Shown in pieces: positions 1 to 21,372 of a stretch of DNA of 64,000 nt. The notes under the pieces are model-generated. The model was not told where the DNA came from. It saw nothing but the letters and a program-made list of their open reading frames with translations, and did no database searches. Origin of the DNA: an uncultured Alphaproteobacteria bacterium (lineage in GTDB: Bacteria > Pseudomonadota > Alphaproteobacteria > Rhizobiales > Kaistiaceae); NCBI GenBank assembly GCA_963843565.1, contig CAWJKY010000002.1:84041-148040 (forward strand), written 5' to 3'. Each line of letters starts with the position of its first letter. The first letter of the stretch is position 1. Position numbers and translations under genes: made by a program.

Positions 1-1283
1 GCCTCTACCCGAAGATCAGCGCCGACGGGCGCTTCGTGGCGTTCTTTTCCGGCGCCGCCAACCTCGTCAGCAGCGACACCAACGGCAAGAACGATGTCTT
101 CGTCCGTGACCGGCAGACCGGCACGACGGAACTGGTGAGCGTCGCGACCGGCGGCGGTCAGGCAACCGACGACAGCCTCAACCCGGCGATCAGCGCCGAC
201 GGACGCTTCGTGGCGTTCTATTCCTACGCCAACAACCTTGTCAGCGGCGACTCCAACAGCTTTGCGGATATCTTCGTCCATGACCGGCAGACCGGCACGA
301 CGGCACGGGTGAGCGTCGTCACCGGCGGCAGCCAGGCGATCGGCGGCGGCAGCATCAGCCCGGCGATCAGCGCCGACGGTCGCTTCGTGGCGTTCGAGTC
401 CGACGCCGCCAATCTTTACGGCGGCGACACCAACAGTGCCAGCGACATCTTCGTCCATGACCGGCAGACCGGCACGACGGAATGGGTGAACTACGCGCCG
501 GGCAACGGCCAGGCAAACGGCGACAGCTACCTCGCGGCGATCAGCGCCGACGGGCGCTTCGTGGCATTTGAATCCTACGCCACCAACCTCGTCAGCGGCG
601 ACAGCAACGGTGCCTACGACATCTTCGTCCATGACCGGCAGACCGGCGCGACGGAACGGGCGAGCGTCACGACAGGCGGCGTCCAGGCGAACGACAGCGC
701 CTACTACGCGGCGATCAGCGCCGACGGGCACTTCGTGGCATTCGAATCCGTCGCCACCAACCTTGTCAGCGGCGACAGCAATGGCGACTCCGACATCTTC
801 GTCCGCGACCGCGGCACCAGCGGAGCCGCACCGCTGGCGCCGTTGGCTCTGAACGCAACCGACGTCGGCGACAGCGCCTTCAGCGCCAACTTCACCGGTC
901 AGGACGCGACCGCCGCCGGCTACCGCATCGACGTGGCGACGACCTCCACCTTCGCGAGCGTCGGCGCACCAGCCGAGAGACCCGCCGACTTTGTGCCGGG
1001 CTATCAGAGCAAGCTGATCCTGTGCGTCCCCAACCCATGCACGCCCGGCACGGTCAGCCAGGTGGTGAGCGACGTCCAGCCCGGCACCCAGGAGTATTTC
1101 TACCGGGTCCAGGCCTGGGGCCTCGGCGGAGACAGCCCCTACTCGGACACCGTCCTGGCGAACCCGATCCCGACGACCCCGCCGCCCAGCAGCAGCAGCG
1201 CCCTGAATCCGCTCGTCCTCGCCGGACTCGGCCTCGTCGCCGCTCTGGGGCTGCTTGGCAAGGCGCGGCGGCGCACCGCCTGA
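1..1283 (+). CDS. Secreted PD40/TolB-like beta-propeller repeat protein with FN3-like domain and C-terminal TM/Arg tail (paralog 1, 5' end cut by window edge)
   Basis: The frame is open from the window edge (codons from pos 3: LYPKISADGRFVAFFS...). Five blades are visible, with consensus ISADGRFVAFxSxAxNLVSGDTNxxxDIFVHDRQTGTTERVSVxTGG. Then comes an FN3-like segment (SANFTG..YRIDV..YFYRVQAWG), a Pro-rich linker, ALNPLVLAGLGLVAALGLLGKARRRTA and the stop. Confidence 0.85.
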   Translation, partial: LYPKISADGRFVAFFSGAANLVSSDTNGKNDVFVRDRQTGTTELVSVATGGGQATDDSLNPAISADGRFVAFYSYANNLVSGDSNSFADIFVHDRQTGTTARVSVVTGGSQAIGGGSISPAISADGRFVAFESDAANLYGGDTNSASDIFVHDRQTGTTEWVNYAPGNGQANGDSYLAAISADGRFVAFESYATNLVSGDSNGAYDIFVHDRQTGATERASVTTGGVQANDSAYYAAISADGHFVAFESVATNLVSGDSNGDSDIFVRDRGTSGAAPLAPLALNATDVGDSAFSANFTGQDATAAGYRIDVATTSTFASVGAPAERPADFVPGYQSKLILCVPNPCTPGTVSQVVSDVQPGTQEYFYRVQAWGLGGDSPYSDTVLANPIPTTPPPSSSSALNPLVLAGLGLVAALGLLGKARRRTA

Positions 1284-1290
1284 ACAGCTC

Positions 1291-1424: not shown

Positions 1425-3194
1425 ATGCAGACGAGAACAGCGACACGCGCGGGCAAACTGTGCCACGCGGCGACGGCGATTGTTGCCGGAATCATCCTGG
1501 CCGCGTCGGCGGCAACCGCCCTCGCCCAGTCGACGGAACGGGTGAGCGTCGCGACCGGTGGCGGCCAGTCGAACAGCGCCAGCGACTCCCCGGTGACCAG
1601 CGCCGACGGGCGCTTCGTTGCGTTCGAATCGATCGCCAGCAACCTCGTCAGCGGCGACACCAACGGTCTCAACGACATTTTCGTCCATGACCGGCAGACC
1701 GGCGCGACGGAACGGGTGAGCGTCGCCACCGGCGGTACCGAAGCGAACGGCGTCAGCTACAGCGCGGCGATCAGCGCCGACGGGCGCTTCGTGGCGTTCT
1801 GGTCCAACGCCAGCAACCTCGTCAGCGGCGACACCAACGGTACGTCCGACATCTTCGTCCATGACCGGCAGACCGGCACGACGGAACGAGTGAGCGTCGC
1901 CACCGGCGGTGCCGAAGGGAACGGCTCCAGCACCATCCCGGCGATCAGCGCCGACGGGCGCTTCGTGGCGTTCGTTTCCTACGCCACCAATCTCGTCGCC
2001 GGCGACACCAACGGTTACGCCGACGTCTTCGTCCATGACCGGCAGACAGGCACGACGGAACGGGTGAGCGTCGCGACCGGCGGCACCCAAGGGGACAACG
2101 CCAGCAGCGACGCGACGATCAGCCCCGACGGGCGCCTCGTGGCGTTCGATTCTGTCGCCACCAACCTCGTTGGCAGCGACGGCAACAGCAAACGCGACGT
2201 CTTCGTCCACGACCGGCAGACCGGCGCGACGGAACGGGTCAGCGTCGCGACCGGCGGTGCTGAGGTGAACGACGACAGCTACGTCCCGGTGATGAGCGCT
2301 GACGGGCGCCTTGTGGCGTTCTATTCCCACGCCAGCAACCTGGTCAGCGGCGACACCAACAGCAAATACGACGTCTTCGTTCATGACCGGCAGACCGGCA
2401 CGACGGAACGGGTGAGCGTCGCGACCGGCGGTACCGAGGCGATCGGCGGCGACAGCTACGCCCCTTCGATCAGCGCCGACGGGCGCTTCGTGGCGTTCTA
2501 TTCCGACGCCACCAACCTCGTCAGCGGCGACACCAACGCTGCCTACGACGTCTTCGTCCGTGACCGGCAGGCCGGCACGACGGAACGGGTGAGCGTCGCG
2601 ACCGGCGGCGGCCAGGCGAACAGTGACAGCCTATACCTAGCCATCAGCGCCGACGGGCGTTTCGTGGCGTTCCGTTCCAACGCCAGCAACCTCGTCAGCG
2701 GCGACACCAACGCGGCCTACGACATCTTCGTCCGCGACCGCGGCACCAGCGGTGCCGCGCCGCTGGCGCCCCTGGCCCTGAACGCGACCGACGTCGGCGC
2801 CGACGCCTTCACCGCCAACTGGACCGGTCAGGACGCAAGCGCCGCCGGCTACCGCATCGACGTGGCGACGACCTCCTCCTTCAGCAGCGTCGGCGCAGGA
2901 GCCGAGGGGCCCGCCGACTTTGTGCCGGGCTACCAGAGCAAGCTGATCCTGTGCGTTCCCAATCCGTGCGTGCCCGGTACGGTCAGCCAGGTGGTGAGCG
3001 ACGTGCAACCGGGCACCCAGGCGTACTATTACCGCGTCCAGGCCTGGGGCCTCGGCGGCGACAGCGCATTCTCGGACCCGGTCCTTGCGAACCCGCCTCC
3101 CGCAGAGTCCAAGACCGCCATCGGACCGTTGGAGCTTCTGGCCTTATCGCTGGTGGCTTTCGCCGGGCTCGGATGGCGGTGGCGTCGGACCTGA
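1425..3194 (+). CDS. Secreted 7-bladed PD40/TolB-like propeller + FN3-like + C-terminal TM/Arg tail protein (paralog 2)
   Basis: ATG 1425 is preceded by AGGAGGG (1412-1418). The N-terminus looks like a signal peptide (AIVAGIILAASAATALA/QS). There are seven S/I-x-DGR-[FL]-VAF blades, an FN3-like segment (TANWTG..YRIDV..YYYRVQAWG) and the tail AIGPLELLALSLVAFAGLGWRWRRT. Confidence 0.9.
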   Translation: MQTRTATRAGKLCHAATAIVAGIILAASAATALAQSTERVSVATGGGQSNSASDSPVTSADGRFVAFESIASNLVSGDTNGLNDIFVHDRQTGATERVSVATGGTEANGVSYSAAISADGRFVAFWSNASNLVSGDTNGTSDIFVHDRQTGTTERVSVATGGAEGNGSSTIPAISADGRFVAFVSYATNLVAGDTNGYADVFVHDRQTGTTERVSVATGGTQGDNASSDATISPDGRLVAFDSVATNLVGSDGNSKRDVFVHDRQTGATERVSVATGGAEVNDDSYVPVMSADGRLVAFYSHASNLVSGDTNSKYDVFVHDRQTGTTERVSVATGGTEAIGGDSYAPSISADGRFVAFYSDATNLVSGDTNAAYDVFVRDRQAGTTERVSVATGGGQANSDSLYLAISADGRFVAFRSNASNLVSGDTNAAYDIFVRDRGTSGAAPLAPLALNATDVGADAFTANWTGQDASAAGYRIDVATTSSFSSVGAGAEGPADFVPGYQSKLILCVPNPCVPGTVSQVVSDVQPGTQAYYYRVQAWGLGGDSAFSDPVLANPPPAESKTAIGPLELLALSLVAFAGLGWRWRRT

Positions 3195-3201
3195 ACGGTT
3201 C

Positions 3202-3228
3202 GCGCCGGCCTTCGGCGAAGGCCGGCGC
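3202..3228 (+). terminator. Post-stop GC hairpin after paralog 2 (no U-tract)
   Basis: Perfect 11-bp stem GCGCCGGCCTT (3202-3212) / AAGGCCGGCGC (3218-3228) with a 5-nt loop. No T-run follows, so intrinsic-terminator function is uncertain. Confidence 0.45.
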
Positions 3229-3271
3229 ATCACCTATGCCGCGCTGCGCGCGCCTGAACACCTGCCGCCAG

Positions 3272-3296
3272 ATTCCACTTTCGCCGGTTGTGGAAC
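3272..3296 (+). promoter_or_regulatory. Conserved dyad upstream of paralog 3 (ATTCCAC-N11-GTGGAAC)
   Basis: Inverted repeat read directly from the sequence. It is followed by the conserved TGTGATCTTGAT and lies ~47 nt upstream of ATG 3343. Confidence 0.4.
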
Positions 3297-3342
3297 TGTG
3301 ATCTTGATCTGCGGTGGTTGAGGCGTACCCGAGGGCATCGCG

Positions 3343-5118
3343 ATGCGGACGAGACCAGCGACAGGCGTGGCACGGTGGCGCCGCGCGGCGACGGCGATTG
3401 CCGCCGCAATCATCCTGGCCGCGCCGGCCGCAACCGCCCTCGCCCAGTCGACGGAACGGGTGAGCGTCGCGACCAATGGCGGCCAGGCAAACGACGTCAG
3501 CTATCCCCAGGCGATCAGCGCCGACGGGCGCTTCGTGGCGTTCTATTCCACCGCCACCAACCTCGTTGGCGGCGACACCAACGCTGCCAGCGACGTCTTC
3601 CTCCGTGACCGGCAGACCGGCACGACGGAACGGGTGAGCGTCGCGACCGGCGGCGGCGAGGCGACCGGCGGCGGCAGCTACTTCCCAGCGATCAGCGCCG
3701 ACGGGCGCTTCGTGGTGTTCCAGTCCGGCGCCACCAACCTCGTCAGCGGCGACACCAACGGCACCAACGATATCTTCGTCCATGACCGGCAGACCGGCGC
3801 GACCGAACGGGTGAGCGTCGCGACGGGCGGCGGCCAGGCGACCGGCGCCAGCGCCTACCCGGCGATCAGCGCTGACGGGCGCTTCGTGGCGTTCTATTCC
3901 GCCGCCACCAACCTCGTCAGCGGCGACACCAACGCTGCCGACGACATCTTCGTCCATGACCGGCAGACCGGCACGACGGAGCGGGTGAGCGTCGCCACCG
4001 GCGGCGGCGAGGCGAACGGCAACAGCTCGGGCAATGCGATCAGCGCCGACGGGCGCTTCGTGGCGTTCCATTCCGACGCCACCAACCTCGTCAGCGGCGA
4101 CACCAACGGTTTCAACGACATCTTCGTCCATGACCGGCAGACCGGCGCGACCGAACGGGTGAGCGTCGCGACGGGCGGCGGCCAGGCGACCGGCGCCAGC
4201 GGCGGCGAGGCGATCGACGGCGACGGACGCTTCGTGGCATTCTATTCCACCGCCACCGACCTCGTCGGCGGCGACACCAACGGCTTCTCCGACGTCTTCG
4301 TCCATGACCGGCAGACCGGCACGACGGAACGGGTGAGCGTCGCGACCGGCGGCGGTCAGGCCGACAACGGAAGCTTCAACCTAGCGATCAGCATCGACGG
4401 GCGCTTCGTGGCATTTGAATCCTTCGCCACCAACCTGGTCAGCGGCGACACCAACGGTACCTACGACATCTTCGTCCACGACCGGCAGACCGGCACGACG
4501 GAACGGGTGAGCGTCACGACCGGCGGTACCGAAGCGACCGGCGGCAGCTACGGCCCGGCGATCGACGCCGACGGGCGCTTCGTGGCGTTCTATTCCGTCG
4601 CCACCAACCTCGTCAGCGGCGACACCAACGCTTTCAGCGACACATTCGTCCGTGACCGCGGCACCAGCGGGGCCGCGCCGCTGGCGCCCCTGGCCCTGAA
4701 CGCGACCAACGTCGGCGCCGACGCCTTCACCGCCAACTGGACCGGTCAGGACGCGAGCGCCGCCGGCTACCGCATCGACGTGGCGACACCCTCCACCTTC
4801 AGCAGCGTCGGCGCGGCAGGCGAGGGGCCCGCCGATTTCGTGCCCGGTTATCAGAGCAAGCTGATCCTGTGCGTCCCCAACCCGTGCACGCCCGGCACGG
4901 TCAGTCTCAACGTGAGCGACGTGCAGCCCGGCACCCAGGCATACTACTACCGCGTCCAGGCCTGGGGCCGCGGTGGCGACAGCGCCTTCTCGGACCCGGT
5001 CCTGGCGAACCCGCCGCCCCCCGAGTCCAAGACCGCGCTCAATCCGCTCGTCCTCGCCGGACTCGGCCTCGTCGCCGCTCTGGGGTTGCTTGGCAGGGCC
5101 CGCCGGCGCACGGCCTGA
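3343..5118 (+). CDS. Secreted 7-bladed PD40/TolB-like propeller + FN3-like + C-terminal TM/Arg tail protein (paralog 3)
   Basis: Same architecture as paralog 2. ATG sits in the conserved context GCATCGCGATG. Signal peptide AIAAAIILAAPAATALA/QS, 7 blades, tail ALNPLVLAGLGLVAALGLLGRARRRTA. Confidence 0.9.
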   Translation: MRTRPATGVARWRRAATAIAAAIILAAPAATALAQSTERVSVATNGGQANDVSYPQAISADGRFVAFYSTATNLVGGDTNAASDVFLRDRQTGTTERVSVATGGGEATGGGSYFPAISADGRFVVFQSGATNLVSGDTNGTNDIFVHDRQTGATERVSVATGGGQATGASAYPAISADGRFVAFYSAATNLVSGDTNAADDIFVHDRQTGTTERVSVATGGGEANGNSSGNAISADGRFVAFHSDATNLVSGDTNGFNDIFVHDRQTGATERVSVATGGGQATGASGGEAIDGDGRFVAFYSTATDLVGGDTNGFSDVFVHDRQTGTTERVSVATGGGQADNGSFNLAISIDGRFVAFESFATNLVSGDTNGTYDIFVHDRQTGTTERVSVTTGGTEATGGSYGPAIDADGRFVAFYSVATNLVSGDTNAFSDTFVRDRGTSGAAPLAPLALNATNVGADAFTANWTGQDASAAGYRIDVATPSTFSSVGAAGEGPADFVPGYQSKLILCVPNPCTPGTVSLNVSDVQPGTQAYYYRVQAWGRGGDSAFSDPVLANPPPPESKTALNPLVLAGLGLVAALGLLGRARRRTA

Positions 5119-5261
5119 ACGGCTCGCGCCGGCGTTCGGCGTCGATCGACGCGGAAGCCGTCGCCCGCCGGGCGTCAGAGCACGGCTAAAATCCATGCTT
5201 TCGTCGGTTGTGGGATTGTGGTTTCATCCGGCGGCGGTTGAGGCGCACCGGGGGGATCGCG

Positions 5262-7037
5262 ATGCCAGCGACAGCAGGGACAGGCGTGGGCAAATGGCGC
5301 CACGCGCCGATGGCGATTGCCGCCGGATTCATCCTGGCCGCATCGGCCGCAACCGCCCTGGCCCAGACGACGGAGCGGGCGAGCGTCGCGACCGGCGGCG
5401 GCCAAGGGGACAGCGACAGCCGCGCTGGGGCAATCAGCGCGGACGGACGCTTCGTGGCGTTCCATTCCTACGCCGCCAACCTCGTCGGCGGCGACACCAA
5501 CGGCAAATTCGACATCTTCGTCCATGACCGGCAGACCGGCACGACGGAACGGGTGAGTGTCGCGACCGGCGGCGGCCAGGCGGACGGCGACAGCGTAAAC
5601 CCGGCGATCAGCGCCGACGGACGCTTCGTGGCGTTCTATTCCAACGCCACCAATCTCGTCAGCGGCGACACCAACGGCAAGAACGACGTCTTCGTCCATG
5701 ACCGGCAGACCGGCACGACGGAACGCGTGAGCGTCGCGACCGGCGGCGGCCAGGCGACCGGCGGCGACAGCATCGACCCGGCGATCAGCGCCGACGGGCG
5801 CTTCGTGGCGTTCTGGTCCTTCGCCACCAACCTCGTGGGCGGCGACACCAACGGCAATTTCGACATCTTCGTCCATGACCGGCAGACCGGCACGACGGAA
5901 CGGGTAAGCATCGCGACCGGCGGTGCCCAAGCGACCGGCAACAGCAGCGTCCCGGCGATCAGCGCCGACGGGCGCTTCGTGGCGTTCCAGTCCTATGCCA
6001 CCAACCTCGTCGGCGGCGACACCAACGCTACCCCCGACACCTTTGTCCATGACCGGCAGACCGGCACGACGGAACGGGTCAGCATCGCGACCGGCGGTGC
6101 CCAAGCGACCGGCAACAGCATCAACCCGGCGATCAGCGCCGACGGGCGCTTCGTGACGTTCGATTCCGCCGCCAGCAATCTCGTCAGCGGCGACACCAAC
6201 GGTTTCGACGACATCTTCGTCCATGACCGGCAGACCGGCACGACGGAACGGGTGAGCGTCGCAACCGGCGGTGCCGAAGCGGACGGCGCCAGCAGCGACC
6301 CGGCGATCAGCGCCGACGGGCGCTTCGTGGCGTTCTGGTCCTTCGCCACCAACCTCGTCGCCGGCGACACCAACACTAACTCCGACGTCTTCGTCCATGA
6401 CCGGCAGACCGGCACGACGGAGCGGGTGAGCATCGCGACCAACGGCGGCCAGGCCGGCGGCGTCAGCTACTATCCGGCGATCAGCGCCGACGGGCGCTTC
6501 GTGGCATTCGAATCCCTCGCCGCCAACCTAGTCGGCGGCGACACCAACGCGGCCTACGACATCTTCGTCCGCGACCGCGGCACCAGCGGAGCCGCGCCGC
6601 TGGCGCCGTTGGCTCTGAACGCGACCGACGTCGGCGACAGCGCCTTCACCGCCAACTGGACCGGCCAGGACGCAACCGCCGCCGGCTACCGCCTCGACGT
6701 GGCGACGACCTCGTCCTTCAGCAGCGCCGGCGCGGCCGGGGGGCGGCCCGCCGGGTTCGTGCCGGGGTATCAGAGCAAGGTGATCCTGTGCGTCCCCAAC
6801 CCGTGCGTGCCCGGCACGGTGAGCGAGGCGGTGAGTGACGTGCAGCCAGCCAGCCAGGAATATTACTACCGGGTCCAGGCCTGGGGCCGCGGCGGCGACA
6901 GCCCCTTCTCGGACACGGTCCTGGCGAACCCGCCGCCCCCCGAGTCCAAGACCGCCCTCAATCCGCTCGTCCTCGCCGGGCTCGCCCTCGTTGCCGCTCT
7001 GGGGCTGCTTGGCAAGGCCAGGCGGCGCACCGCCTGA
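5262..7037 (+). CDS. Secreted 7-bladed PD40/TolB-like propeller + FN3-like + C-terminal TM/Arg tail protein (paralog 4)
   Basis: ATG 5262 lies in the context GGGGGGATCGCGATG, homologous to the other copies; the track ORF start at 5208 is probably too far upstream. Signal peptide, 7 blades, FN3-like segment, tail ALNPLVLAGLALVAALGLLGKARRRTA. Confidence 0.9.
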   Translation: MPATAGTGVGKWRHAPMAIAAGFILAASAATALAQTTERASVATGGGQGDSDSRAGAISADGRFVAFHSYAANLVGGDTNGKFDIFVHDRQTGTTERVSVATGGGQADGDSVNPAISADGRFVAFYSNATNLVSGDTNGKNDVFVHDRQTGTTERVSVATGGGQATGGDSIDPAISADGRFVAFWSFATNLVGGDTNGNFDIFVHDRQTGTTERVSIATGGAQATGNSSVPAISADGRFVAFQSYATNLVGGDTNATPDTFVHDRQTGTTERVSIATGGAQATGNSINPAISADGRFVTFDSAASNLVSGDTNGFDDIFVHDRQTGTTERVSVATGGAEADGASSDPAISADGRFVAFWSFATNLVAGDTNTNSDVFVHDRQTGTTERVSIATNGGQAGGVSYYPAISADGRFVAFESLAANLVGGDTNAAYDIFVRDRGTSGAAPLAPLALNATDVGDSAFTANWTGQDATAAGYRLDVATTSSFSSAGAAGGRPAGFVPGYQSKVILCVPNPCVPGTVSEAVSDVQPASQEYYYRVQAWGRGGDSPFSDTVLANPPPPESKTALNPLVLAGLALVAALGLLGKARRRTA

Positions 7038-7098
7038 CCGCCTGGCGCCGGCTTTCGGCAACGATCGACGCGGAAGCGATCGCCCGCCGTGTTGCGAG

Positions 7099-7123
7099 GT
7101 TCCACTTTCGCCGGTTGTGGAAC
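7099..7123 (+). promoter_or_regulatory. Conserved dyad upstream of paralog 5 (GTTCCAC-N11-GTGGAAC, perfect 7-bp arms)
   Basis: GTTCCAC 7099-7105, spacer TTTCGCCGGTT, GTGGAAC 7117-7123. The position relative to the ATG matches copy 3. Degenerate versions precede copies 2 and 4. Confidence 0.45.
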
Positions 7124-7167
7124 TGTGATCTTGATTTGCCGCGGTTAACGCGCCCGGGGGGATCGCG

Positions 7168-8967
7168 ATGCAGACGAAATCAGTGACAGGCGTGGCCACA
7201 TGGCGCCACGCCTCGACGGCGATTGCCGCCGCAATCATCCTGGCCGCGTCGGCCGCAACCGCCCTCGCCCAGACGACGGAACGGGCGAGCGTCGCGACCG
7301 GCGGCAGCCAGGCGACCAGCGACAGCTACAACCCGGCGATCAGCGCGGACGGGCACTTCGTGGCGTTCCAGTCCGCCGCCGCCGACCTCGTCGCCAGCGA
7401 CACCAACGGCAATTTCGACATCTTTGTCCATGACCGGCAGACCGGCACGACCGAACGGGTGAGCGTCGCGACCGGCGGCAGCCAGGCGACCGGCGGCAAC
7501 AGCAACAACGCGGCGATCAGCGCCGACGGGCGCTTCGTGGCGTTCGAATCCGACGCCACCGACCTCGTCAGCGGCGACACCAACAGTGCCAAAGACATCT
7601 TTGTCCATGACCGGCAGACCGGCACGACGGAACGGGTGAGCGTCGCGACCAACGGCACTCAAGAGACCGGCGCCAGCTCCGCCCCGGCGATCAGCGCCGA
7701 CGGGCGCTTCGTGGCGTTCGAATCCGACGCAATCGACCTGGTCAGCGGCGACACCAACGCTGCCACCGACATCTTCGTCCATGACCGGCAGACCGGCACG
7801 ACGGAACGGCTGAGCGTCGCGACCAACGGCACTCAAGCGACCGGCGCCAGCATCGCCGTGGCGATCAGCGCCGACGGGCGCTTCGTGGCGTTCGAATCCA
7901 CCGCCGCCGACCTCGTCAGCGGCGACACCAACAGTGCCAAAGACATCTTCGTTCATGACCGGCAGACCGGCACGACGGAACGGGTGAGCGTCGCGACCGG
8001 CGGCGTCCAGGTGCCCAGCCACAGCTTCGCGGCCGCGATCAGCGCCGACGGGCGCTTCGTGACGTTCTTTTCCGGCGACGCCAACCTGGTCAGCGGCGAC
8101 ACCAACAGCAAAGTCGATATCTTCGTCCATGACCGGCAGACCGGCACGACAGAACGGGTGAACGTCGCCACCGGCGGGACCCAGGCGGACGACAACAGCT
8201 ACAACTCGACGATCAGCGCTGACGGGCGCTTCGTGACGTTCCATTCCTACGCCACCAATCTCGTCAGCGGCGACGGCAACGGCTACGTCGATATCTTCGT
8301 CCATGACCGGCAGACCGGCACGACGGAACGGGTGAGCGTCGCGACCGGCGGGACCGAAGCGACCGCCGACAGTGTCCTCCCGGCGATCAACGCCGACGGG
8401 CGCTTCGTGGCGTTCTATTCCGGCGCCACCGACCTCGTCAGCGGCGACACCAACTCTGTCCCGGACATCTTCGTCCGCGACCGCGGCACCAGCGGAGCCA
8501 CGCTGGCGCCCCTGGCGCTGAACGCAACTGACGTCGGTACCGACGCCTTCACCGCCAACTGGACCGGCCAGGACGCAAGCGCCGTCGGCTACCGCATCGA
8601 CGTGGCGACGACCTCCTCCTTCGCGAGCGTCGGCGCGGCAGCCGAGGGGCCCGCCGACTTTGTACCGGGATATCAGAGCAAGCTGATCCTGTGCGTCCCC
8701 AACCCGTGCGTGCCCGGCACGGTCAGCCTCGCGGTAACCGGCGTGCAGCCAGGCACCCAGGCATACTACTACCGCGTCCAGGCCTGGGGCCTCGGCGGCG
8801 ACAGCGCCTACTCGGACGCGGTCCTGGCGAACCCGCCCCCCGCGACTCCGACCCCAACGCCCCCGCCCCCCGAGTCCAGCAGCGCCCTCAATCCGCTCGT
8901 CCTCGCCGGACTCGGCCTCGTCGCCGCTCTGGGGCTGCTTGGCAAGGCCCGACGGCGCACGGCCTGA
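7168..8967 (+). CDS. Secreted 7-bladed PD40/TolB-like propeller + FN3-like + C-terminal TM/Arg tail protein (paralog 5)
   Basis: ATG lies in the context GGGGGGATCGCGATG. Signal peptide AIAAAIILAASAATALA/QT, 7 blades, FN3-like segment. The Pro/Thr linker is longer (PPPATPTPTPPPPESSS). Tail ALNPLVLAGLGLVAALGLLGKARRRTA. Confidence 0.9.
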   Translation: MQTKSVTGVATWRHASTAIAAAIILAASAATALAQTTERASVATGGSQATSDSYNPAISADGHFVAFQSAAADLVASDTNGNFDIFVHDRQTGTTERVSVATGGSQATGGNSNNAAISADGRFVAFESDATDLVSGDTNSAKDIFVHDRQTGTTERVSVATNGTQETGASSAPAISADGRFVAFESDAIDLVSGDTNAATDIFVHDRQTGTTERLSVATNGTQATGASIAVAISADGRFVAFESTAADLVSGDTNSAKDIFVHDRQTGTTERVSVATGGVQVPSHSFAAAISADGRFVTFFSGDANLVSGDTNSKVDIFVHDRQTGTTERVNVATGGTQADDNSYNSTISADGRFVTFHSYATNLVSGDGNGYVDIFVHDRQTGTTERVSVATGGTEATADSVLPAINADGRFVAFYSGATDLVSGDTNSVPDIFVRDRGTSGATLAPLALNATDVGTDAFTANWTGQDASAVGYRIDVATTSSFASVGAAAEGPADFVPGYQSKLILCVPNPCVPGTVSLAVTGVQPGTQAYYYRVQAWGLGGDSAYSDAVLANPPPATPTPTPPPPESSSALNPLVLAGLGLVAALGLLGKARRRTA

Positions 8968-9009
8968 CCGAGAAGGATCTCGAGACCGGGATTGACATGG
9001 CGGCCACGT

Positions 9010-9035
9010 GAGCGCGCCCGCAACGTGGCGCGCTC
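9010..9035 (+). terminator. GC hairpin downstream of the last array gene
   Basis: GAGCGCGCC (9010-9018) - N8 - GGCGCGCTC (9027-9035), a perfect 9-bp stem. It lies between the array and the ATPase gene. Confidence 0.4.
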
Positions 9036-9118
9036 CGCCCGTCGTGCTAAAACGCGGCGGGCGGACAGCTGTTCTCTGCACACGAGGCGGGCGTGATCAT
9101 CGACGGCGTGATGCTGCT

Positions 9119-11632
9119 GTGGTTCGGTCCGGCGACACGCCGGTGGTGACCGGGCTGACCGACGCCGAGGCCGCCGCCCGGCGGGCGCGCGGCGAAGGCA
9201 ACGACGTCGAGATGGCCGCCAGCCGCGGCTACCTCGACATCGTCCGCTTCAACCTCTTCAACCTGTTCAACAACATCCTGTTCGTGATCGGCGCGGCGCT
9301 GATCGCGCTCGGCCGCACCTACGACGCCATGACCAGCGTCGGCCTGGCCCTGGTCAACGCCGTCATCAGCACCGTCCAGGAACTTTACGCCAAGCGGCAG
9401 CTCGACCAGATCGCGCTGCTCACCCGCCCGTCGGTGACGCTGGTGCGCGGCGGCAGCGAGCGCACCGCCGACCCGGCCGAGATCGTCAAGGGCGACACGC
9501 TGCGCCTCAAGGTCGGCGATCAGGTGGTGGTCGACGGAACGGTGACCGGCGAGGGAACGCTGGAGATCGACGAGGCGCTGCTCACCGGCGAATCGAACCC
9601 GGTCACCAAACGCGCCGGCGACCAGCTTCTGTCGGGCAGCTTCTGCATCGGCGGCAGCGGCGCCTACACCGCCGATCAGGTCGGCCGCGACAGCTACGCC
9701 AACAAGCTGACCGAGAGCGCCCGCCAGTTTCGCGTCGTGCTCACCCCGCTGCAGAAGCAGATCAACTACACGGTGCGCATCATCATGCTGGTGGTGGCGC
9801 TGATGAGCGGCATCATTTTGGTCGCGGCGATCCTCGAAAACGCCACGACGCTGCGCGTCGTCCAGCTCGCGGCGGTGCTCTCCGGGCAGGTTCCCTACGG
9901 CCTGTTCTTCATCATCGTCGTCGCCTACGCCTTCGGCGCCACCCAGAGCGCCCGCCGTGGCGCCCTCATCCAGCAGATCAACGCGGTCGAGTCGCTGAGC
10001 GACATCGACGTGCTGTGCAGCGACAAGACCGGAACGCTGACCACCAACCGGCTGACCGTCGCCGAGATCGTGCCGGCCGACGGCGGCAGCGCCGACCGCC
10101 TCGCGGCGCTGCTCGGGCGCTTCGCGCACGGCTCCGCCGACGGCGGCCCGACCATCGCGGCGCTGCGCAGCGCGATGCCGGCGGAGACCGCCGCGGTCGC
10201 CGGCGCCGTGCCGTTCTCCTCGGCGCGCCGCTGGAGCGCGGTGACGCTCTCCGGCGACAGCGACGCCGGAACGTATGTGCTCGGCGCCTGGGACGCGCTG
10301 GCGCCGGCGCTCGCCGACGGCAGCGAGATCCTGACCGACGCCCTCGCCCGCCTCACCGGCCGCGGCTTCCGCGTGCTGCTGTTCGCCCGCGCCGCCGACG
10401 GCGCCGCGCCCGGTGGCGAGGATCCGGCGCTGCCGCCGCTCGCCGCCCTCGGCCTCGTCGCGCTCGCCGACGAACTGCGGCCGCAGGCGGCGGAGATGCT
10501 GGCGGCCTTCGCCAGCATGGGCATCCGCCTGAAGATCATCTCCGGCGACGACCCGCGCACCGTCGCCGCGCTCGCCACCCAGGCGGGGCTTGCCGGCGAC
10601 ATCGTCACCGCGACCGGGCCGGAACTGGAAGATCTGGCCGACGACGCCTTCGCCGAGGCGGCGGAACGGGCGACCGTGCTCGGCCGCGTCTCGCCCGCCC
10701 AGAAGGAGCGCATCGTCGCGTCGCTGGTGGCGGGCGGTCACTACGTCGCCATGATCGGCGACGGCGTCAACGACGTGCTGGCGCTCAAGAAAGCCCAGCT
10801 GGGCATCGCCATGCAGAGCGGCAGCCCGGCGGCCCGCGCCATCGCCGACATCGTGCTGTCCGGCGACAGCTTCGCGCCGCTGCTGCCGGCCTTCGACGAG
10901 GGGCGCCGCATCATCGGCGGCATGATCACGGTGATGGCGCTGTTCCTGGCCCGCGTCTCGGCCTCGATCCTGACGATCATCGCGATCACCATGCTCGGTC
11001 TCTCGTTTCCCTTCGAACCGGCGCAGGTGGCGACCTCGCTGTTCACGGTCGGCGTCCCCGCGATGCTTCTGTCGCTGTGGGCCAGGCCGGTCACCCGGGT
11101 CGGCGACATCCTGCCCGACCTGGTGCGCTTCGTGATCCCCAGCGCCATCCTGTCGATGATCGTCGGCGCCGGCCTCTACACCCTCGAGTACCACCGCGTG
11201 GAGACCTCGGTGACCGGGATCGACATTCCGCAGCGCGTCATCGACATGTTTGAGCACGCCACCGGCGTCAAATACTCGGCGACCGACCAGTTCGCCGGAG
11301 CGGCGGCCACCATCGTCGCGCAGACGACGCTGTCGGTGTTCATCGCCTACTCGGCCTTCATCCTGATCCTGTTCGTCGAGCCGCCGCTGCGCTACTTCAC
11401 CGGCTGGCGCCGGCTGAGCACCGACCTTCGCCCGACCTGGATGATGATCGCGCTGTCGGTGGTCTTCTTCGTCATCGTGCAGAACGGGATGCTCGCCTCC
11501 TACTTCGCGCTGGTGCCGCTGCAGCCGCACATGCTGCTCGACGTCGCCATCGGACTGGTCATCTGGACGGTAGCACTGCGCGAGATGTGGCGTCGCGACT
11601 GGCTGGAGCGGTTCCTGGGACCGCGTGGATGA
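9119..11632 (+). CDS. Cation-translocating P-type ATPase (HAD-IC type), substrate unknown
   Basis: TGES actuator motif (LLTGESNPV), phosphorylation motif CSDKTGTLT (10022-10036), hinge motif GDGVNDVLALKKA, and about 10 predicted TM segments. The start is uncertain: in-frame GTGs occur at 9119, 9143 and 9146, and the track start at 9008 lies inside a hairpin. Confidence 0.9.
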   Translation: MVRSGDTPVVTGLTDAEAAARRARGEGNDVEMAASRGYLDIVRFNLFNLFNNILFVIGAALIALGRTYDAMTSVGLALVNAVISTVQELYAKRQLDQIALLTRPSVTLVRGGSERTADPAEIVKGDTLRLKVGDQVVVDGTVTGEGTLEIDEALLTGESNPVTKRAGDQLLSGSFCIGGSGAYTADQVGRDSYANKLTESARQFRVVLTPLQKQINYTVRIIMLVVALMSGIILVAAILENATTLRVVQLAAVLSGQVPYGLFFIIVVAYAFGATQSARRGALIQQINAVESLSDIDVLCSDKTGTLTTNRLTVAEIVPADGGSADRLAALLGRFAHGSADGGPTIAALRSAMPAETAAVAGAVPFSSARRWSAVTLSGDSDAGTYVLGAWDALAPALADGSEILTDALARLTGRGFRVLLFARAADGAAPGGEDPALPPLAALGLVALADELRPQAAEMLAAFASMGIRLKIISGDDPRTVAALATQAGLAGDIVTATGPELEDLADDAFAEAAERATVLGRVSPAQKERIVASLVAGGHYVAMIGDGVNDVLALKKAQLGIAMQSGSPAARAIADIVLSGDSFAPLLPAFDEGRRIIGGMITVMALFLARVSASILTIIAITMLGLSFPFEPAQVATSLFTVGVPAMLLSLWARPVTRVGDILPDLVRFVIPSAILSMIVGAGLYTLEYHRVETSVTGIDIPQRVIDMFEHATGVKYSATDQFAGAAATIVAQTTLSVFIAYSAFILILFVEPPLRYFTGWRRLSTDLRPTWMMIALSVVFFVIVQNGMLASYFALVPLQPHMLLDVAIGLVIWTVALREMWRRDWLERFLGPRG

Positions 11633-11651
11633 AAAAGGGAGGACCCGCACG

Positions 11652-11951
11652 ATGATCGTGGTCACCGGCGCGCTGCGCCTCGCCCCGGAAAGCGTCGCCG
11701 CGGCGCGGCCGCACATGCGCACCAACCTCGAAGCCACCCGCAAGGAAGATGGCTGCCTGCTCTACGCCTACGGCGAGGACGTGCTGGAACCGGGGCTGAT
11801 CCGCATCGTGGAGCGCTGGCGCGACTGGCAGGCGCTGGCCGCCCACGACCGCGCCGCGCACGTCGCCGCCTGGCGCGCGGCGCTGAAGGAGATCGGCGTG
11901 CTCGCCCGCGACCTGATCGCCTGCGAGGCGGGCGAGACGCGGCCGATCTGA
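11652..11951 (+). CDS. Antibiotic-biosynthesis-monooxygenase (ABM)-like small protein
   Basis: MIVVTGALRL...EDGCLLYAYGEDVLEPGLIRIVERWRDWQALAAHDRAAH matches the typical YgiN/ABM ferredoxin-like fold pattern. The internal ATG at 11652 is preferred. Confidence 0.65.
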   Translation: MIVVTGALRLAPESVAAARPHMRTNLEATRKEDGCLLYAYGEDVLEPGLIRIVERWRDWQALAAHDRAAHVAAWRAALKEIGVLARDLIACEAGETRPI

Positions 11952-11955
11952 GGAG

Positions 11956-12216
11956 TCACGACCTCAGCTTGGTGAGGACGTGGGCGGCGGCCACCTCGGC
12001 CCAGTCCTCGCCTTCCTCGACCTCTTCGATGAGCTCCGCGAGACGGCTCGCCTCGACGAACTCTCCGACCTTGCCGAGCACATAGGCGGCGTAGAAGCCC
12101 GCCCAGCTGGCGTCGACCACGCCCTTGAGGGCGACGCGCTCGTATTCGGCATGAACCGCGTCGGCGGCGATAAGCGCCGCACCGAGCGCGCCCGGCGATG
12201 GCAGATCGTGCGACAT
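11956..12216 (-). CDS. Hypothetical acidic small protein
   Basis: ORF in the coding-like frame. The internal Met start (MSHDLPSPGAL...) is preferred over the Arg-rich extension. No recognisable motif. Confidence 0.45.
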   Translation of the reverse strand: MSHDLPSPGALGAALIAADAVHAEYERVALKGVVDASWAGFYAAYVLGKVGEFVEASRLAELIEEVEEGEDWAEVAAAHVLTKLRS

Positions 12217-12303
12217 TGGTGTCGTGGCCCCTCGTGCGGGCGCCACCCTAGCGCATCCTTCGCCCAAGCGGAAAAATGCAGGTTGACGCCCCCGCACCGC
12301 ACC

Positions 12304-12337
12304 AAAAAAACGGGGCACCGCGAGGATGCCCCTTTTT
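12304..12337. terminator. Rho-independent terminator (bidirectional appearance)
   Basis: A7-run, stem GGGGCA (12312-12317) / TGCCCC (12327-12332), then T5-run. On the minus strand it reads stem followed by U7, downstream of the small Lys-rich gene. Confidence 0.65.
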
Positions 12338-12454
12338 ACCCTGCCCTCTACTCGGGCTCTTCCTCTTCCGTCCGCCGCACGGCCGCTCTTTCTTCGGATC
12401 GGCCGCGACGGCGGGGCGGAAGTGTGCGTCGCCGGCGAACCGGCGACCGCTACG

Positions 12455-12562
12455 CTACTTCCTCTTCGCAGGAGCCTTCTTGGCCGGAGCCTTCTTCTTC
12501 GCCGCCGGCTTCTTCGCGGCGGGTTTCTTCTTCGCAGGCTTGCGTACAGCTTTCTTAGCCAA
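12455..12562 (-). CDS. 35-aa Lys/Ala/Pro-rich histone-H1-like basic protein (absent from the ORF track)
   Basis: Minus strand: GAGGAG RBS, 7 nt, then TTG GCT AAG AAA ... AAG AGG AAG TAG. This translates to MAKKAVRKPAKKKPAAKKPAAKKKAPAKKAPAKRK. A terminator lies ~120 nt downstream. Confidence 0.6.
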   Translation of the reverse strand: MAKKAVRKPAKKKPAAKKPAAKKKAPAKKAPAKRK

Positions 12563-12740
12563 AGTGTATTCTCCTCTCAGCTTGAGCCGAATCGGCCCAC
12601 AATCATTTTAGTCCAACTTGCGCGTTAACAACGCGCTAATTCGTTTCATTGTGTCAACCCCGATTCAATTGAGTGACTTGCGCACGACACGCGCGCGCGA
12701 CACGTTCCCGCTCATCGTCTCGTCGTTACGGACAACATTC

Positions 12741-13529
12741 ATGGCGTCACGCTTCACCGCATTCGCGATGTCGATCTTCGTCGTCGCGTCGCTCTCGTGC
12801 GCGCACGCCGACGACACCATCGGCACCGCCACCGCGATCACAACGAGCGTCACCGGCAAGCTCGATCCGACCGACGCGGTCGGCCTCAACAAGGGCGACG
12901 GAGTCTTCCAGAACGAGACCATCGTCACCGACGACAAGGGCGTCGGACAGTTCGAATTCCGCGACAAGACGAAGCTCGCGATCGGCCCCAACTCGATCCT
13001 GGTACTCGATAATTTCGTATATGATTCAAAGAGTTCTAAGCAGAAGGTGGTCATCAACCTGACGCAAGGGGCGCTGCGCTTCGTCACCGGCAAGGCCAAC
13101 CACGACGCCTACGAGATCGTCACACCAGCCGCCGTCATCGGCGTGCGCGGCACGGTCTTCGACGTCTACGCCAAGCCTGACGGCGAGCTCGCGGTGGCGA
13201 TGATCGACGGCGCGGTGGAAGTCTGTCCGAAGCGCGCCGCGTGTCGCGTTCACAACGTCGTCGGCAAGTTCCTGACGATGACTCCGGCGGGCATCTTCAC
13301 CGTGCGCGACGCGTGGGACGGAACCTTTCTGAGCGGCATTTCGTTCACCGCGGCGCTGCCATTTCTGAGTAACCAGGCGATGTTGATTCCTGCCCTGCGT
13401 GGCAAGACAACAACAATCGGAAGCTACCTGACGGCGCTTCCCGACTCAGCGAAGAAGCGAATCAACCTTCCGGTAACCACGCCGTCGAAGGTCCTTCCGA
13501 AGCTCAAGGTGCCGAAACTCTTCAAGTGA
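12741..13529 (+). CDS. FecR-domain secreted protein
   Basis: Signal peptide MASRFTAFAMSIFVVASLSCAHA. FecR-like core: GDGVFQNETIVTDDKGVGQFEFRDKTKLAIGPNSILVLDNF...GALRFVTG...YEIVTPAAVIGVRGTVFDV. Confidence 0.75.
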   Translation: MASRFTAFAMSIFVVASLSCAHADDTIGTATAITTSVTGKLDPTDAVGLNKGDGVFQNETIVTDDKGVGQFEFRDKTKLAIGPNSILVLDNFVYDSKSSKQKVVINLTQGALRFVTGKANHDAYEIVTPAAVIGVRGTVFDVYAKPDGELAVAMIDGAVEVCPKRAACRVHNVVGKFLTMTPAGIFTVRDAWDGTFLSGISFTAALPFLSNQAMLIPALRGKTTTIGSYLTALPDSAKKRINLPVTTPSKVLPKLKVPKLFK

Positions 13530-13619
13530 GTCGGCGACGTGAGTCGCGCATCCGAGTCGGTCGCGACACGGGGATCGCGACCGACGCGCGACGCACGCCT
13601 GAAGACTCTCTTCGCCCCG

Positions 13620-13985
13620 TCAGTAGCCACTGCCGAACCCGAAGAAGAGATGCAGGCGCGGTCCGTAGGGGTACGGCGGCGGCGGCGGCGGATAGTAGGG
13701 CGGATCGTCGGGCGGCGCGTAGGGAGCGTAGGTGCTCAGGAAGCGCGACGACATCCAGCCGGCGCTGCCGCCGTAGCCGACCCAGCACCAGCCGGGCTGA
13801 CAGCCGCCGACCTCGACGGGCGAACCGGCGGGCAGCGCGAACAGCACCGGGTACGCGGTGCCGGGCCCTTGCCGCACATTGACGTTGTCGGTGGTCTCGG
13901 CCGGCCAGGCGAAGGCGGCGGTCGCGCCGGCGCCGGCCAGAACCAGACTGGCGATCGCGATCGCCAGCAGACGCGATGCACTCAT
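13620..13985 (-). CDS. Secreted SH3-like (SH3_3) domain protein with Pro/Tyr-rich tail
   Basis: Signal peptide, then TTDNVNVRQGPGTAYPVLFALPAGSPVEVGGCQPGWCWVGYGGSAGWMSSRFL, a bacterial SH3 pattern. The C-terminus is PPYYPPPPPPYPYG. Confidence 0.7.
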   Translation of the reverse strand: MSASRLLAIAIASLVLAGAGATAAFAWPAETTDNVNVRQGPGTAYPVLFALPAGSPVEVGGCQPGWCWVGYGGSAGWMSSRFLSTYAPYAPPDDPPYYPPPPPPYPYGPRLHLFFGFGSGY

Positions 13986-14363
13986 TCTTGTCTCCTCCTT
14001 CTTGCTCGGTTGCAGACACAGGGAACGCGAACGCGAAACGCGGGGGTGAGATACGGGCGGGCGACCGCGTATGAACTTATGTCGGCGAAACGGCGGCGGC
14101 CGTTTCCCGCCCGCCCGCGGCGGGCACCCGCCATTGCAATCCGCGGCACTCTGTCACATAAATTGTGGCACGATCGGGTATGGGCCGATCGAAGATGGAG
14201 AGCGCGACGGGCGCGAAGGCACCCGGAAAGCGGCGGGAAGTCGGATACCGCGGGCGACACCACATCATCCAACAGCAAAACGATCGTCGATATCGGACAG
14301 CCTGCCAACCCGGCCGGAGCGCGCACCAGTCGGGTGGGTGAAACGAACTGAAAAGGTAAGGCG

Positions 14364-14579
14364 ATGCGTCAGAACGGCACCGTGAAATTCTTCAATGCGT
14401 CGAAGGGCTACGGGTTCATTACCCCGGACGACGGCGGCAAGGACGTGTTCGTGCACGTTACCGCGGTCGAACGTTCGGGACTGGGATCATTGGCCGACGG
14501 CCAGCGGGTCTCCTTCGAGACCGAGCCCGACAAGCGCGGCAAGGGACCGAAGGCAGTGGAGCTTCAGCCAGCGACCTGA
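14364..14579 (+). CDS. cspA: Cold-shock protein, CspA family
   Basis: [35 protein letters not shown] contains the RNP1/RNP2 cold-shock motifs. Confidence 0.95.
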
Positions 14580-14628
14580 ACGAAGCAAGGCCGCGGCGAC
14601 AGCGGCCGACACGACGAGAATTCATCGA

Positions 14629-14657
14629 AGCCGCCGGCAACCCCGGCGGCTCTTTTG
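14629..14657 (+). terminator. Rho-independent terminator after csp
   Basis: AGCCGCCGG (14629-14637), loop CAACC, CCGGCGGCT (14643-14651), followed by CTTTTGT. Confidence 0.7.
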
Positions 14658-14672
14658 TGGGGGAAGACGATC

Positions 14673-15374
14673 ATGCGTTTGGCGTTGAAAGTTGCGGCGG
14701 CGGTCGCGCTGGTTCTCACCGGCGCAGCGCACGCGGCCGAACCGGTGAAGCGCATCGACATCTACGTCGAGCCCTACTACGCCGCCTCGCCCTCCCCCGA
14801 CCAGCCGCCGCGTGTCGCGGTTGGTGCGGCGTTCGAGACCCTGCTCGCCTCGACCAACCGCGACGACATCGTCGCGGCCCGCGACAAGGTTCTGGCCGAC
14901 CCCAGGCTGGTGACGCCGATGACCATGATGGTTCTGGCGATCCGCCTCTACGACATGGGGCTGCGCGACGACGCGGTCTTCTGGTTCTACGCCGCCAAGG
15001 ACCGCTACCGGACGCTCGCCGAGGTGCTCGATCTGAACGCGGGCGGCCTGCGCCAGGTGGAGGACACGATGCGCAGTTTCATGGCGCTGGCCGGGCCGGT
15101 GATCAACGGCTACGCCTTCTGCGACATCGCCAATCAGCAAGCCATCCGCGCCCGCGCCCTCGACTGGGTCGAGGCCAACCCCTATGGCGCGATTCAGATC
15201 GACAAGCTGCCGGCCGTGGTCGCCAACCGCGACGCCGGCATTGCCGCATCGGTCGCGCGCATCCGCATCGACGCCGCCAAGGAGACCGCCTACCTCGAGG
15301 ACGCCACCAACGTCGCAGCGTTCAAGGCGAAGCGCGCCGAGAACGAAATGGACGTGAGGTTCTGCTGGAAGTGA
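14673..15374 (+). CDS. Secreted hypothetical protein
   Basis: MRLALKVAAAVALVLTGAAHA signal peptide. Coding-like composition. No recognised motif. Confidence 0.6.
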   Translation: MRLALKVAAAVALVLTGAAHAAEPVKRIDIYVEPYYAASPSPDQPPRVAVGAAFETLLASTNRDDIVAARDKVLADPRLVTPMTMMVLAIRLYDMGLRDDAVFWFYAAKDRYRTLAEVLDLNAGGLRQVEDTMRSFMALAGPVINGYAFCDIANQQAIRARALDWVEANPYGAIQIDKLPAVVANRDAGIAASVARIRIDAAKETAYLEDATNVAAFKAKRAENEMDVRFCWK

Positions 15375-15387
15375 GGACGAGCGAGCC

Positions 15388-15873: not shown

Positions 15874-15892
15874 GGCTGACGGCCGCCAGCGG

Positions 15893-20811: not shown

Positions 20812-21372
20812 TCACAGCGGCGGGGCCTTGCGCCGCGGCAGCAGGAACAGCCCGAGGACCGCGCCGAGAAGCACCGGCGGCCCATGAATGTCGCGGGCCA
20901 CGACGAGGGCGACGGCGCCGGCCAGCACAACGACCGGCCCGACCTTTGCGAAGGCGGGAAGCGGCGCGCCGGGCAGCAGCGACCACGCGGCAACCGCGCC
21001 GAACTGGCCGGCAACCGCGACCGAGCACCCGGCGCCCGCCGGCTGCCAGGCGAGCGCGATCATCTGGCCGAAGAGGCCGGGCACGAGGAACAGGACGAAC
21101 CAGCGCCACGAGCCGAACTGGCCCTCGCCGACGATCCCCAGCACCACCACGCCGACGACGACGCTGGCAACCTGAACGACGCCGTCGTCGTAGGCGACGA
21201 GCGCCGTCACCACCCGCCACCATTCGTCCGGGCTGGCGGCAAGCCCGTCGCGGGCAAGCGCCGCATACCAGCCAGGGACGAGCGCCTGCGCCGCCGCGGC
21301 CGCCAGAACCACGACGACCAGGAAGACCGTGACAGGCGGGACGCGGGAGATGGACGGGGCGGCGGCCGCCAC
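20812..21372 (-). CDS. Rhomboid-family intramembrane protease-like protein (divergent motifs)
   Basis: Six hydrophobic segments. EWWRVVTA aligns with the rhomboid E-W-W-R-L-x-T motif, G-C-S-V-A-V-A-G with GxSGxxxG, and DIHGPPVLLGAVLG with AHxGGxxxG. The GTG start lies 5 nt after the proC stop. Confidence 0.55.
   Translation of the reverse strand: MAAAAPSISRVPPVTVFLVVVVLAAAAAQALVPGWYAALARDGLAASPDEWWRVVTALVAYDDGVVQVASVVVGVVVLGIVGEGQFGSWRWFVLFLVPGLFGQMIALAWQPAGAGCSVAVAGQFGAVAAWSLLPGAPLPAFAKVGPVVVLAGAVALVVARDIHGPPVLLGAVLGLFLLPRRKAPPL

Follow-up and report, generated by a model that had tools for sequence, protein, structure and literature searches.

A portable C-terminal tail with the layout of a sorting signal on tandem propeller proteins of an uncultured alphaproteobacterium

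We examined a 64 kb stretch of contig CAWJKY010000002.1 from an uncultured alphaproteobacterium (64,000 nucleotides; here called the window) for a C-terminal tail encoded at the 3' ends of five tandem paralogous genes at positions 3 to 8967. The tail is modular and present in many copies per genome, purifying selection acts on it, and no known model of a C-terminal sorting domain claims it. Judged from its sequence and distribution, there is about an even chance that it is a lineage-restricted, PEP-CTERM-like sorting signal that would be read by a membrane enzyme encoded elsewhere.

The tail and its carriers

Positions 8872 to 8967 translate to ESSSALNPLVLAGLGLVAALGLLGKARRRTA, followed by a stop codon. 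An A-L-N-P signature leads there into a 16-residue hydrophobic helix (LVLAGLGLVAALGLLG) and then into KARRRTA, which is the tripartite layout (short motif, transmembrane [TM] helix, and basic cluster) that the first-pass annotation of this DNA had described. That all five paralogs share the tail was likewise borne out by six-frame scans and the listing of open reading frames (ORFs), in which the paralogs stand head to tail on the plus strand (Table 1). The four that end at 1283, 5118, 7037, and 8967 carry a type A tail, ALNPLVLAGL[GA]LVAALGLLG[KR]ARRRTA, and paralog 2 (end 3194) is the only window copy with the diverged type B tail, AIGPLELLALSLVAFAGLGWRWRRT. The residues ES[KS][TS], which had been placed ahead of the tail in four copies, precede it in three; those ahead of ALNPL in paralog 1 are SSSS.

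The paralogs have a common build of signal peptide, seven-bladed PD40 propeller, fn3-like domain, Pro-rich spacer, and tail. Their signal peptide is of the Sec type (..AASAATALA/Q[TS]TER), Pfam assigns the PD40 repeats with an E value of 4.6e-18 (3.5e-15 in paralog 2) and gives a weak fn3 match, and the Pro/Thr spacer before the tail differs in length between paralogs. An AlphaFold model of paralog 5 contains a confident seven-bladed propeller at residues 36 to 438 (predicted local distance difference test, ∼90), a low-confidence beta-sandwich at 453 to 540, no secondary structure at 541 to 575, and a helix at 576 to 598 whose first residue is the invariant Pro of the tail.

When ORF ends were tested loosely for a hydrophobic run with a basic cluster, cytochrome c1 and a DUF2127 protein were also flagged, so the bare helix-plus-basic pattern is not diagnostic. 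The signature A-[IL]-x-P-L..L..L...A..G, in contrast, is specific in the window: a hidden Markov model (HMM) of the tail found only the five paralogs at E values below 1e-13, and the next match had an E value of 0.19. Because the window copies are paralogs, their mutual tail similarity reflects descent, and the test beyond descent is whether the same tail stands on unrelated proteins elsewhere.

A 32-column profile of the tail, run with HMMER against 1.84 billion representative proteins (E ≤ 1e-3), gave 12 matches, 11 of them genuine and 1 a low-complexity false positive. All 11 genuine matches stop no more than 3 residues from the C terminus. Pfam and all-against-all BLAST resolved the tail-bearing proteins into five architectures with four distinct N-terminal modules: PD40 with an fn3-like domain (the window paralogs), PD40 with an Ig-like domain (P0108 and P0086), Inhibitor_I9 and Peptidase_S8 with an Ig-like domain (P0146), FG-GAP and Big_3_5 with fn3 (P0141), and an uncharacterized N-terminal domain of ∼450 amino acids (aa) with fn3 (P0142, P0144, and P0147). 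By BLAST, the tail is the sole part that the S8 peptidase shares with the PD40 proteins. Restriction of the tail to one family had been named in advance as an outcome that would speak against a sorting signal; instead, at least four other architectures carry it, the S8 peptidase included, and its presence on such unrelated proteins strengthens the sorting-signal reading.

Every full-length carrier has a signal-peptide-like N terminus, the tripartite layout stands at the extreme C terminus in every carrier, and Pro/Thr spacers of variable length precede the tail. PD40 homologues from other phyla have no tail, so the tail behaves as a suffix, as PEP-CTERM and GlyGly-CTERM tails likewise do (PMC3237569); variable-length spacers ahead of the tail have also been described for GlyGly-CTERM (PMC3237569). 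Such systems typically have subtilases and adhesin-like repeat proteins among their cargo (PMC1569441 and PMC3237569).

The tail is also repeated within a genome. A sister genome (ENA ERZ25039549 contig_18800; 2.74 Mb), whose YchF is 99% identical to that of the window, has at least 12 tail genes over three loci: 6 tails in L029, which is syntenic with the window array and has the same P-type ATPase at its end, 4 in L001, with a subtilase among the carriers, and 2 in L007. More copies are found in L005 (ERZ25039495 contig_87111) and L006 (contig_79054).

Several features of these loci and proteins were observed alongside the tail. The L029 array (6578-17975, matching window positions 1-9000) is split into short PD40 gene calls of 65 to 241 aa, with tails in several frames, caused either by long-read frameshift errors or by real pseudogenization. 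A third tail variant, ALDPLTLFGLGSLAAVGWRFR[KR]R, occurs in L001 on the subtilase and two neighboring PD40 genes (3514-5403, 9890-11785, and 12825-14648), and its presence on nonhomologous neighbors points to exchange of the tail segment between them; two LuxR/GerE-type regulators of ∼400 aa lie between these genes. The tail genes of L005 and L006 lie within mobile or defense-type islands: that of L005 includes a phage integrase, a small terminase subunit, DUF927, and a resolvase, and that of L006 includes serine recombinases, a ParB-methylase, a DNA methylase, and an AIPR/Z1/DUF4420/HATPase cluster. These cargo-and-tail genes may move horizontally.

Other C termini were seen in the same propeller family. 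Thirteen of the 120 best PD40 homologues (P0006, P0013, P0014, P0025, P0035, P0047, P0048, P0063, P0082, P0084, P0091, P0092, and P0104) have the motif phi-L-P-phi-phi-phi-[RK], without a TM helix, at the C terminus or within 4 residues of it (for instance, YLPVVVR, ALPLVVR, FLPLIVR, and YLPMTMK), and this may be a different C-terminal signal. A loose pattern for another conserved C-terminal module, ..YYRDP..FCP.P.GSTFN[IV]SNA.A..W, is fitted by 23 of the 120, including P0005, P0010, P0012, P0017, and P0024, and is a further case of C-terminal modules being swapped on this family.

Constraint on the tail

In a set of 20 tails, A-3, P0, L+3, L+6, A+10 (Gly once), and G+13 were invariant, and because they are spaced 3-3-3-4-3, they lie on one face of the helix. 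Among the window paralogs, the nonsynonymous difference of the tail was 0.04, the lowest of all 27-codon blocks (0.09 to 0.53 elsewhere), at an ordinary synonymous difference of 0.16 (0.06 to 0.23 elsewhere). In Nei-Gojobori counts over the window and the related loci, the proportions of nonsynonymous (pN) and synonymous (pS) differences were 0.03 and 0.13 for type A tails (pN/pS, 0.24) and 0.08 and 0.49 for type B tails (pN/pS, 0.17). The tail is thus under purifying selection, with a pN/pS of ∼0.2 that falls in the range of the folded fn3-like domain (0.11 to 0.47). Moreover, since pN stays at 0.08 in type B tails even at a pS of 0.49, the idea that tail identity comes from recent gene conversion alone was rejected.

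What the tail may do

If the tail is a sorting signal, an N-terminal Sec signal peptide would export the protein, and the C-terminal helix with its cytoplasmic Arg and Lys residues would arrest it in the inner membrane, with the T-A-[IL]-x-P-L signature on the periplasmic side. The next step would fall to a dedicated polytopic membrane enzyme whose gene lies elsewhere in the genome; in an alphaproteobacterium, the likeliest candidate would be an exosortase-type transpeptidase. This enzyme would recognize the signature and one conserved helix face, cut away the anchor, and hand over the cargo, which comprises propellers, a subtilisin-like protease, and FG-GAP/Ig/fn3 proteins, for display on the surface or in the matrix. 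Whereas the tail itself is read directly from the genes, we infer the cleavage, the enzyme, and the final location. Beyond the portability of the tail, the cargo favors this reading, because permanent retention on the inner membrane would be an odd fate for a subtilase and adhesin-like proteins.

Several results weigh against a sorting signal. We scanned ∼50 window ORFs against Pfam and checked the hydropathy of those that received no assignment; in agreement with the first-pass annotation, the 64 kb window holds no exosortase or sortase gene, nor does it hold a CPBP protease gene. Pfam annotations of ∼100 kb across L001, L005, L006, L007, and L029 revealed no exosortase, sortase, CPBP protease, or rhomboid. 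The tail is also confined to a very narrow set of assemblies (the 12 representative matches). Searches of GTDB representatives with peptide patterns from the fn3-like domain and tail of paralog 5 returned three unrelated loci and no relative with that region, a protein-pattern scan of JGI metagenomes gave no confirmed match, the type B DNA pattern (TAIGPLELL) had 21 chance matches and no C-terminal tails in the JGI metagenomes, and IMG/VR had no match to the DNA pattern of either tail type. With so narrow a distribution, descent and the shuffling of fn3-plus-tail or Ig-plus-tail cassettes could explain much of the spread, and the identical tail variants on L001 neighbors show local copying. 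Further, the residue that precedes the invariant Pro varies (N, D, H, G, or E), which makes the signature weaker than the PEP, LPXTG, or Cys motifs. A 46-aa tail alignment searched against a database of 5.8e9 proteins was swamped by low-complexity words and yielded only P0138, one real PEP-CTERM protein, and one MYXO-CTERM fragment.

Many of these observations would suit a simpler role, which we take seriously while judging it somewhat improbable. The tail would be a plain C-terminal stop-transfer anchor of type I topology by which exported proteins stay permanently tethered to the inner membrane on its periplasmic side; the conserved helix face would serve helix-helix packing or oligomerization, and the tail would have spread within one lineage by duplication and by shuffling of domain-plus-tail cassettes. 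This would fit the lack of an enzyme near all six loci (the window and five related loci), the narrow distribution, the identical tails of neighboring genes, and the variable position before the Pro. It would also fit the company of the tail, which nearly always follows a domain of only two kinds, fn3-like or Ig-like, and the window itself has anchors made of a TM helix and basic residues, such as that of cytochrome c1. Against it stand the five architectures with four N-terminal modules and the 12 or more copies that a genome of 2.7 Mb carries. The conserved extramembrane TA[IL]xPL segment and near-invariant small residues on one helix face also exceed what hydrophobic anchoring needs, and surface display would suit a secreted-type subtilase that has an I9 propeptide, as well as adhesin-like repeats set behind Pro-rich spacers, better than periplasmic tethering would.

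A bolder form of the sorting-signal reading, that the TA[IL]xPL tail and an enzyme other than an exosortase, rhombosortase, sortase, or myxosortase would be a new pair in an uncultured Hyphomicrobiales-like lineage, borne partly on mobile islands, seems unlikely to us. The mobile part of that proposal comes from L005 and L006, where tail genes sit among integrase, terminase, and recombinase genes.

It is highly improbable that the rhomboid-like protein of the window is a new rhombosortase-type intramembrane protease that cleaves the tails. The first-pass annotation had singled out this rhomboid-family ORF, and it is indeed the only membrane-protease-like ORF in the window, with a Pfam match on the minus strand (Table 1), but it makes a poor enzyme candidate. 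Its length is near the 204 aa of the Shewanella rhombosortase SO_2504, WRxxT is retained, GCSVAVAG may supply a catalytic Ser, and IHGPPVLLG may supply a catalytic His. Yet it has no match at E ≤ 0.1 in NCBIfam, the rhombosortase model TIGR03902 included, reads IHGPPVLLG where rhombosortases have AHxxGxxxG in TM6, and lacks the rhombosortase SGMLH of TM4 with its stacking His and the His/Asn pair of TM2; nor does it have detectable sequence similarity to solved rhomboids. The gene lies among housekeeping genes, between proC and an MqsA-like helix-turn-helix gene, 12 kb from the array, no rhomboid occurs in the flanks of the five related loci, and the tails have no Gly/Ser-rich motif and score far below the GlyGly_CTERM cutoff. 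We rejected it as an unsupported candidate for the tail-processing enzyme.

The last alternative, in which recent tandem duplication and gene conversion alone made the tails alike and the likeness serves no function besides that of the parent gene, would account for the rare codons shared by the window tails (AAT, GCT, CTT, and GGA), the low pS of type A tails, and the duplicated intergenic units, but we give it scant credence, since it is already largely refuted by the type B counts, by a tail that matches the rest of the gene in synonymous divergence yet has the lowest nonsynonymous divergence in the protein, and by tails on nonhomologous proteins at other loci and in other genomes.

C-terminal sorting tags select the proteins that are to be displayed on the surface of a bacterium or in its matrix, and newly defined tags have each led to a dedicated membrane enzyme: sortase, exosortase, rhombosortase, and myxosortase. 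The tail shares the features by which bioinformatics had defined those tags, being tripartite, portable, present in many copies per genome, and accompanied by a signal peptide. It would let annotators recognize the surface proteome of an uncultured soil alphaproteobacterial lineage, with its hypervariable propeller array, subtilase, and adhesin-like proteins, and it is a precise query for phylogenetic profiling toward the enzyme. If that enzyme proved to be an ordinary exosortase, the gain would be a PEP-CTERM subclass and its HMM, which is useful but incremental. The tail merits an HMM and profiling; it is not yet a new mechanism.

The array and its surroundings

The window is otherwise a stretch of housekeeping alphaproteobacterial chromosome. 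Its genes include a P-type ATPase, lgt, prs-ctc-pth-ychF, plsY, and petABC, together with ABC exporters, hemF, and MoxR/DUF58 genes. The best named relatives of its YchF are from Bauldia sp. (81 to 82% identity). With this and the alphaproteobacterial gene content, the host is a diderm, probably a Hyphomicrobiales-like bacterium whose genome measures about 2.7 to 3.2 Mb at a GC content of 68%. A PemK/MazF toxin gene and two adenylate/guanylate cyclase-TPR genes also lie in the window. Table 1 collects the coordinates.

Table 1. Features of the window. Positions are nucleotides of the window unless given as residues; strand is plus (+) or minus (-).
Feature	Position	Strand	Remarks
Paralog 1	3..1283	+	Cut by window start; PD40 propeller, fn3-like domain, spacer, type A tail
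Paralog 1 tail plus stop	1200-1283	+	Type A
Paralog 2	1425..3194	+	Likely start ATG 1425; first in-frame start 1299; type B tail
Paralog 2 tail plus stop	3117-3194	+	Type B
Paralog 3	3343..5118	+	Type A tail, R replacing K
Paralog 3 tail plus stop	5035-5118	+	Type A
Paralog 4	5262..7037	+	Type A tail, GLA variant
Paralog 4 tail plus stop	6954-7037	+	Type A
Paralog 5	7168..8967	+	599 aa; type A tail
Paralog 5 signal peptide	residues 1-35		Ends ..ATALA/QT
Paralog 5 seven-bladed propeller	residues 36-438		
Paralog 5 fn3-like beta-sandwich	residues ∼446-553		
Paralog 5 Pro/Thr spacer	residues 554-572		
Paralog 5 tail	residues 573-599		
Paralog 5 tail from signature to stop	8884..8967	+	Signature, helix, KARRRTA, stop
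DUF2127 protein	15388-15873	-	Hydrophobic run and basic cluster at ORF end
MqsA-like helix-turn-helix gene	20497-20808		Next to rhomboid-like gene
Rhomboid-like membrane protein	20812..21372	-	186 aa; PF01694, 33.4 bits, atypical and short
PemK/MazF toxin	40011-40683	+	With small upstream partner ORF
Cytochrome c1	40704-41558	-	Hydrophobic run and basic cluster at ORF end
Adenylate/guanylate cyclase-TPR proteins	55682-59256	+	Two tandem paralogs

Within the array, the propeller parts (7273-8484 and its equivalents in the other four paralogs) differ mostly by amino acid changes concentrated at loop positions. Eighty-seven of the 414 columns of the propeller alignment were hypervariable (pN, 0.55, against an overall pS of 0.20), and pN/pS was 0.88 for the whole propeller compared with 0.35 for the fn3-like domain. 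This pattern suggests diversifying selection on a tandem set of putative binding surfaces, with blade-to-blade recombination as an alternative.

The spacers between the paralogs (1284-1424, 3195-3342, 5119-5261, and 7038-7167) have a mean column identity of 76%. Each contains a GC-rich inverted repeat just past the stop codon, GCGCCGGC..TTCGGCG..GCCGGCGC, and the element TTTCGCCGGTTGTGGAAnTGTGAT is conserved upstream of the start; no sigma-70 consensus site was found in them. Given this conservation, every copy was duplicated along with its own terminator-like and promoter/operator-like sequences. Long antisense ORFs of 400 to 630 aa run across the paralogs (7180-9081, 2983-4305, and 5175-6398, all on the minus strand); because third-position GC content marks the plus-strand frames as coding, they are artifacts of high GC content.

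How the tail compares with known sorting signals

We searched NCBIfam (June 2026) and Pfam with the full proteins and with the tails alone. On full proteins, no C-terminal sorting model was reported except JDVT-CTERM on P0147 (14.5 bits against a cutoff of 27). Isolated tails gave subthreshold matches, which align to those halves of the models that represent the helix and the basic cluster: PEP_CTERM at 13.0 to 15.7 bits on the related tails, from model position 3 to 6 onward (cutoff, 16); JDVT-CTERM at 13.7 to 22.6 (cutoff, 27) and MYXO-CTERM at 11.8 to 18.4 (cutoff, 20), both in the helix half only; IPTL_CTERM (TIGR04174) at 13.2 on one tail, over model positions 11 to 27 only (cutoff, 20.5); and GlyGly_CTERM (TIGR03501) at 9.7 at best (cutoff, 15.5). 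Isolated type A tails nominally pass LPXTG_anchor (TIGR01167; 17.2 and 16.6 against 15.9), but these matches span model positions 11 to 33 or 13 to 33 only, which are helix and basic cluster without LPXTG, and TIGR01167 was not reported on full proteins. Neither type of window tail was matched by TIGR02595, and PF07589 was not reported. The scoring against sorting-domain HMMs that the first-pass annotation had proposed thus leaves the tail unclaimed by any known model, and, as it had stated, the motif matches neither PEP nor GG nor LPXTG; Cys is likewise absent from the signature. Its label of an unknown class was nevertheless overstated, given how closely the related tails approach the PEP_CTERM cutoff.

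The tail resembles the PEP-CTERM/exosortase (XrtA, EpsH) system in its N-terminal signal peptide and diderm host, in its Pro-containing motif, ∼16-residue Leu/Gly/Ala helix, and Arg cluster at the extreme C terminus, and in its many copies per genome on otherwise unrelated proteins (at least 12 in contig_18800, over the five architectures). The nearest look-alike is the genuine PEP-CTERM tail of P0268, IPEPTTLVLAGLGCVAAAGLRRRRR, whose helix nearly matches that of type A. The differences are that the almost unvarying Pro-Glu-Pro is absent, with Ile or Leu standing in for the first Pro and N, D, H, G, or E at the Glu position (-EP- occurs in P0144 only among the tails), that the helix begins directly after the Pro, and that no exosortase gene, of the EpsH family with eight TM segments and Cys, Arg, and His residues, occurs in the window or related loci. 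We found no genuine PEP-CTERM tails in the sister-genome loci, which would have hinted indirectly at an exosortase.

With GlyGly-CTERM/rhombosortase the tail has in common a tripartite design, S8 peptidase cargo, variable-length spacers, and a many-to-one logic (PMC3237569), but it lacks the Gly/Ser-rich motif and falls far under the HMM cutoff. MYXO-CTERM and JDVT-CTERM, the signals of myxosortases, which are CPBP intramembrane proteases, give the best relative HMM scores, though over the helix half only; they too are tripartite with conserved residues within the helix, and by analogy the conserved helix residues of the tail suggest recognition by an intramembrane enzyme. The invariant Cys that defines myxosortase-type signals is absent from the tail, however, as is the DP inside the JDVT-CTERM helix, and while JDVT-CTERM genes usually adjoin their protease, no PF02517 gene is next to any tail gene. 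LPXTG/sortase signals differ in having the LPXTG pentapeptide before the helix, and no sortase gene accompanies the tail in the window; IPTL-CTERM (TIGR04174) differs in its signature, which the tail fails along with the cutoff. Plain anchors, such as that of cytochrome c1 in the window, likewise combine a signal peptide, an extracytoplasmic domain, a C-terminal helix, and basic residues. The cytochrome c1 anchor, though, is family specific and has no shared signature, whereas the tail is portable on at least five architectures. By its sequence, the tail appears to work like the tripartite sorting domains while being a member of none of the catalogued ones, and it behaves most like what a degenerate PEP-CTERM-type domain would be.

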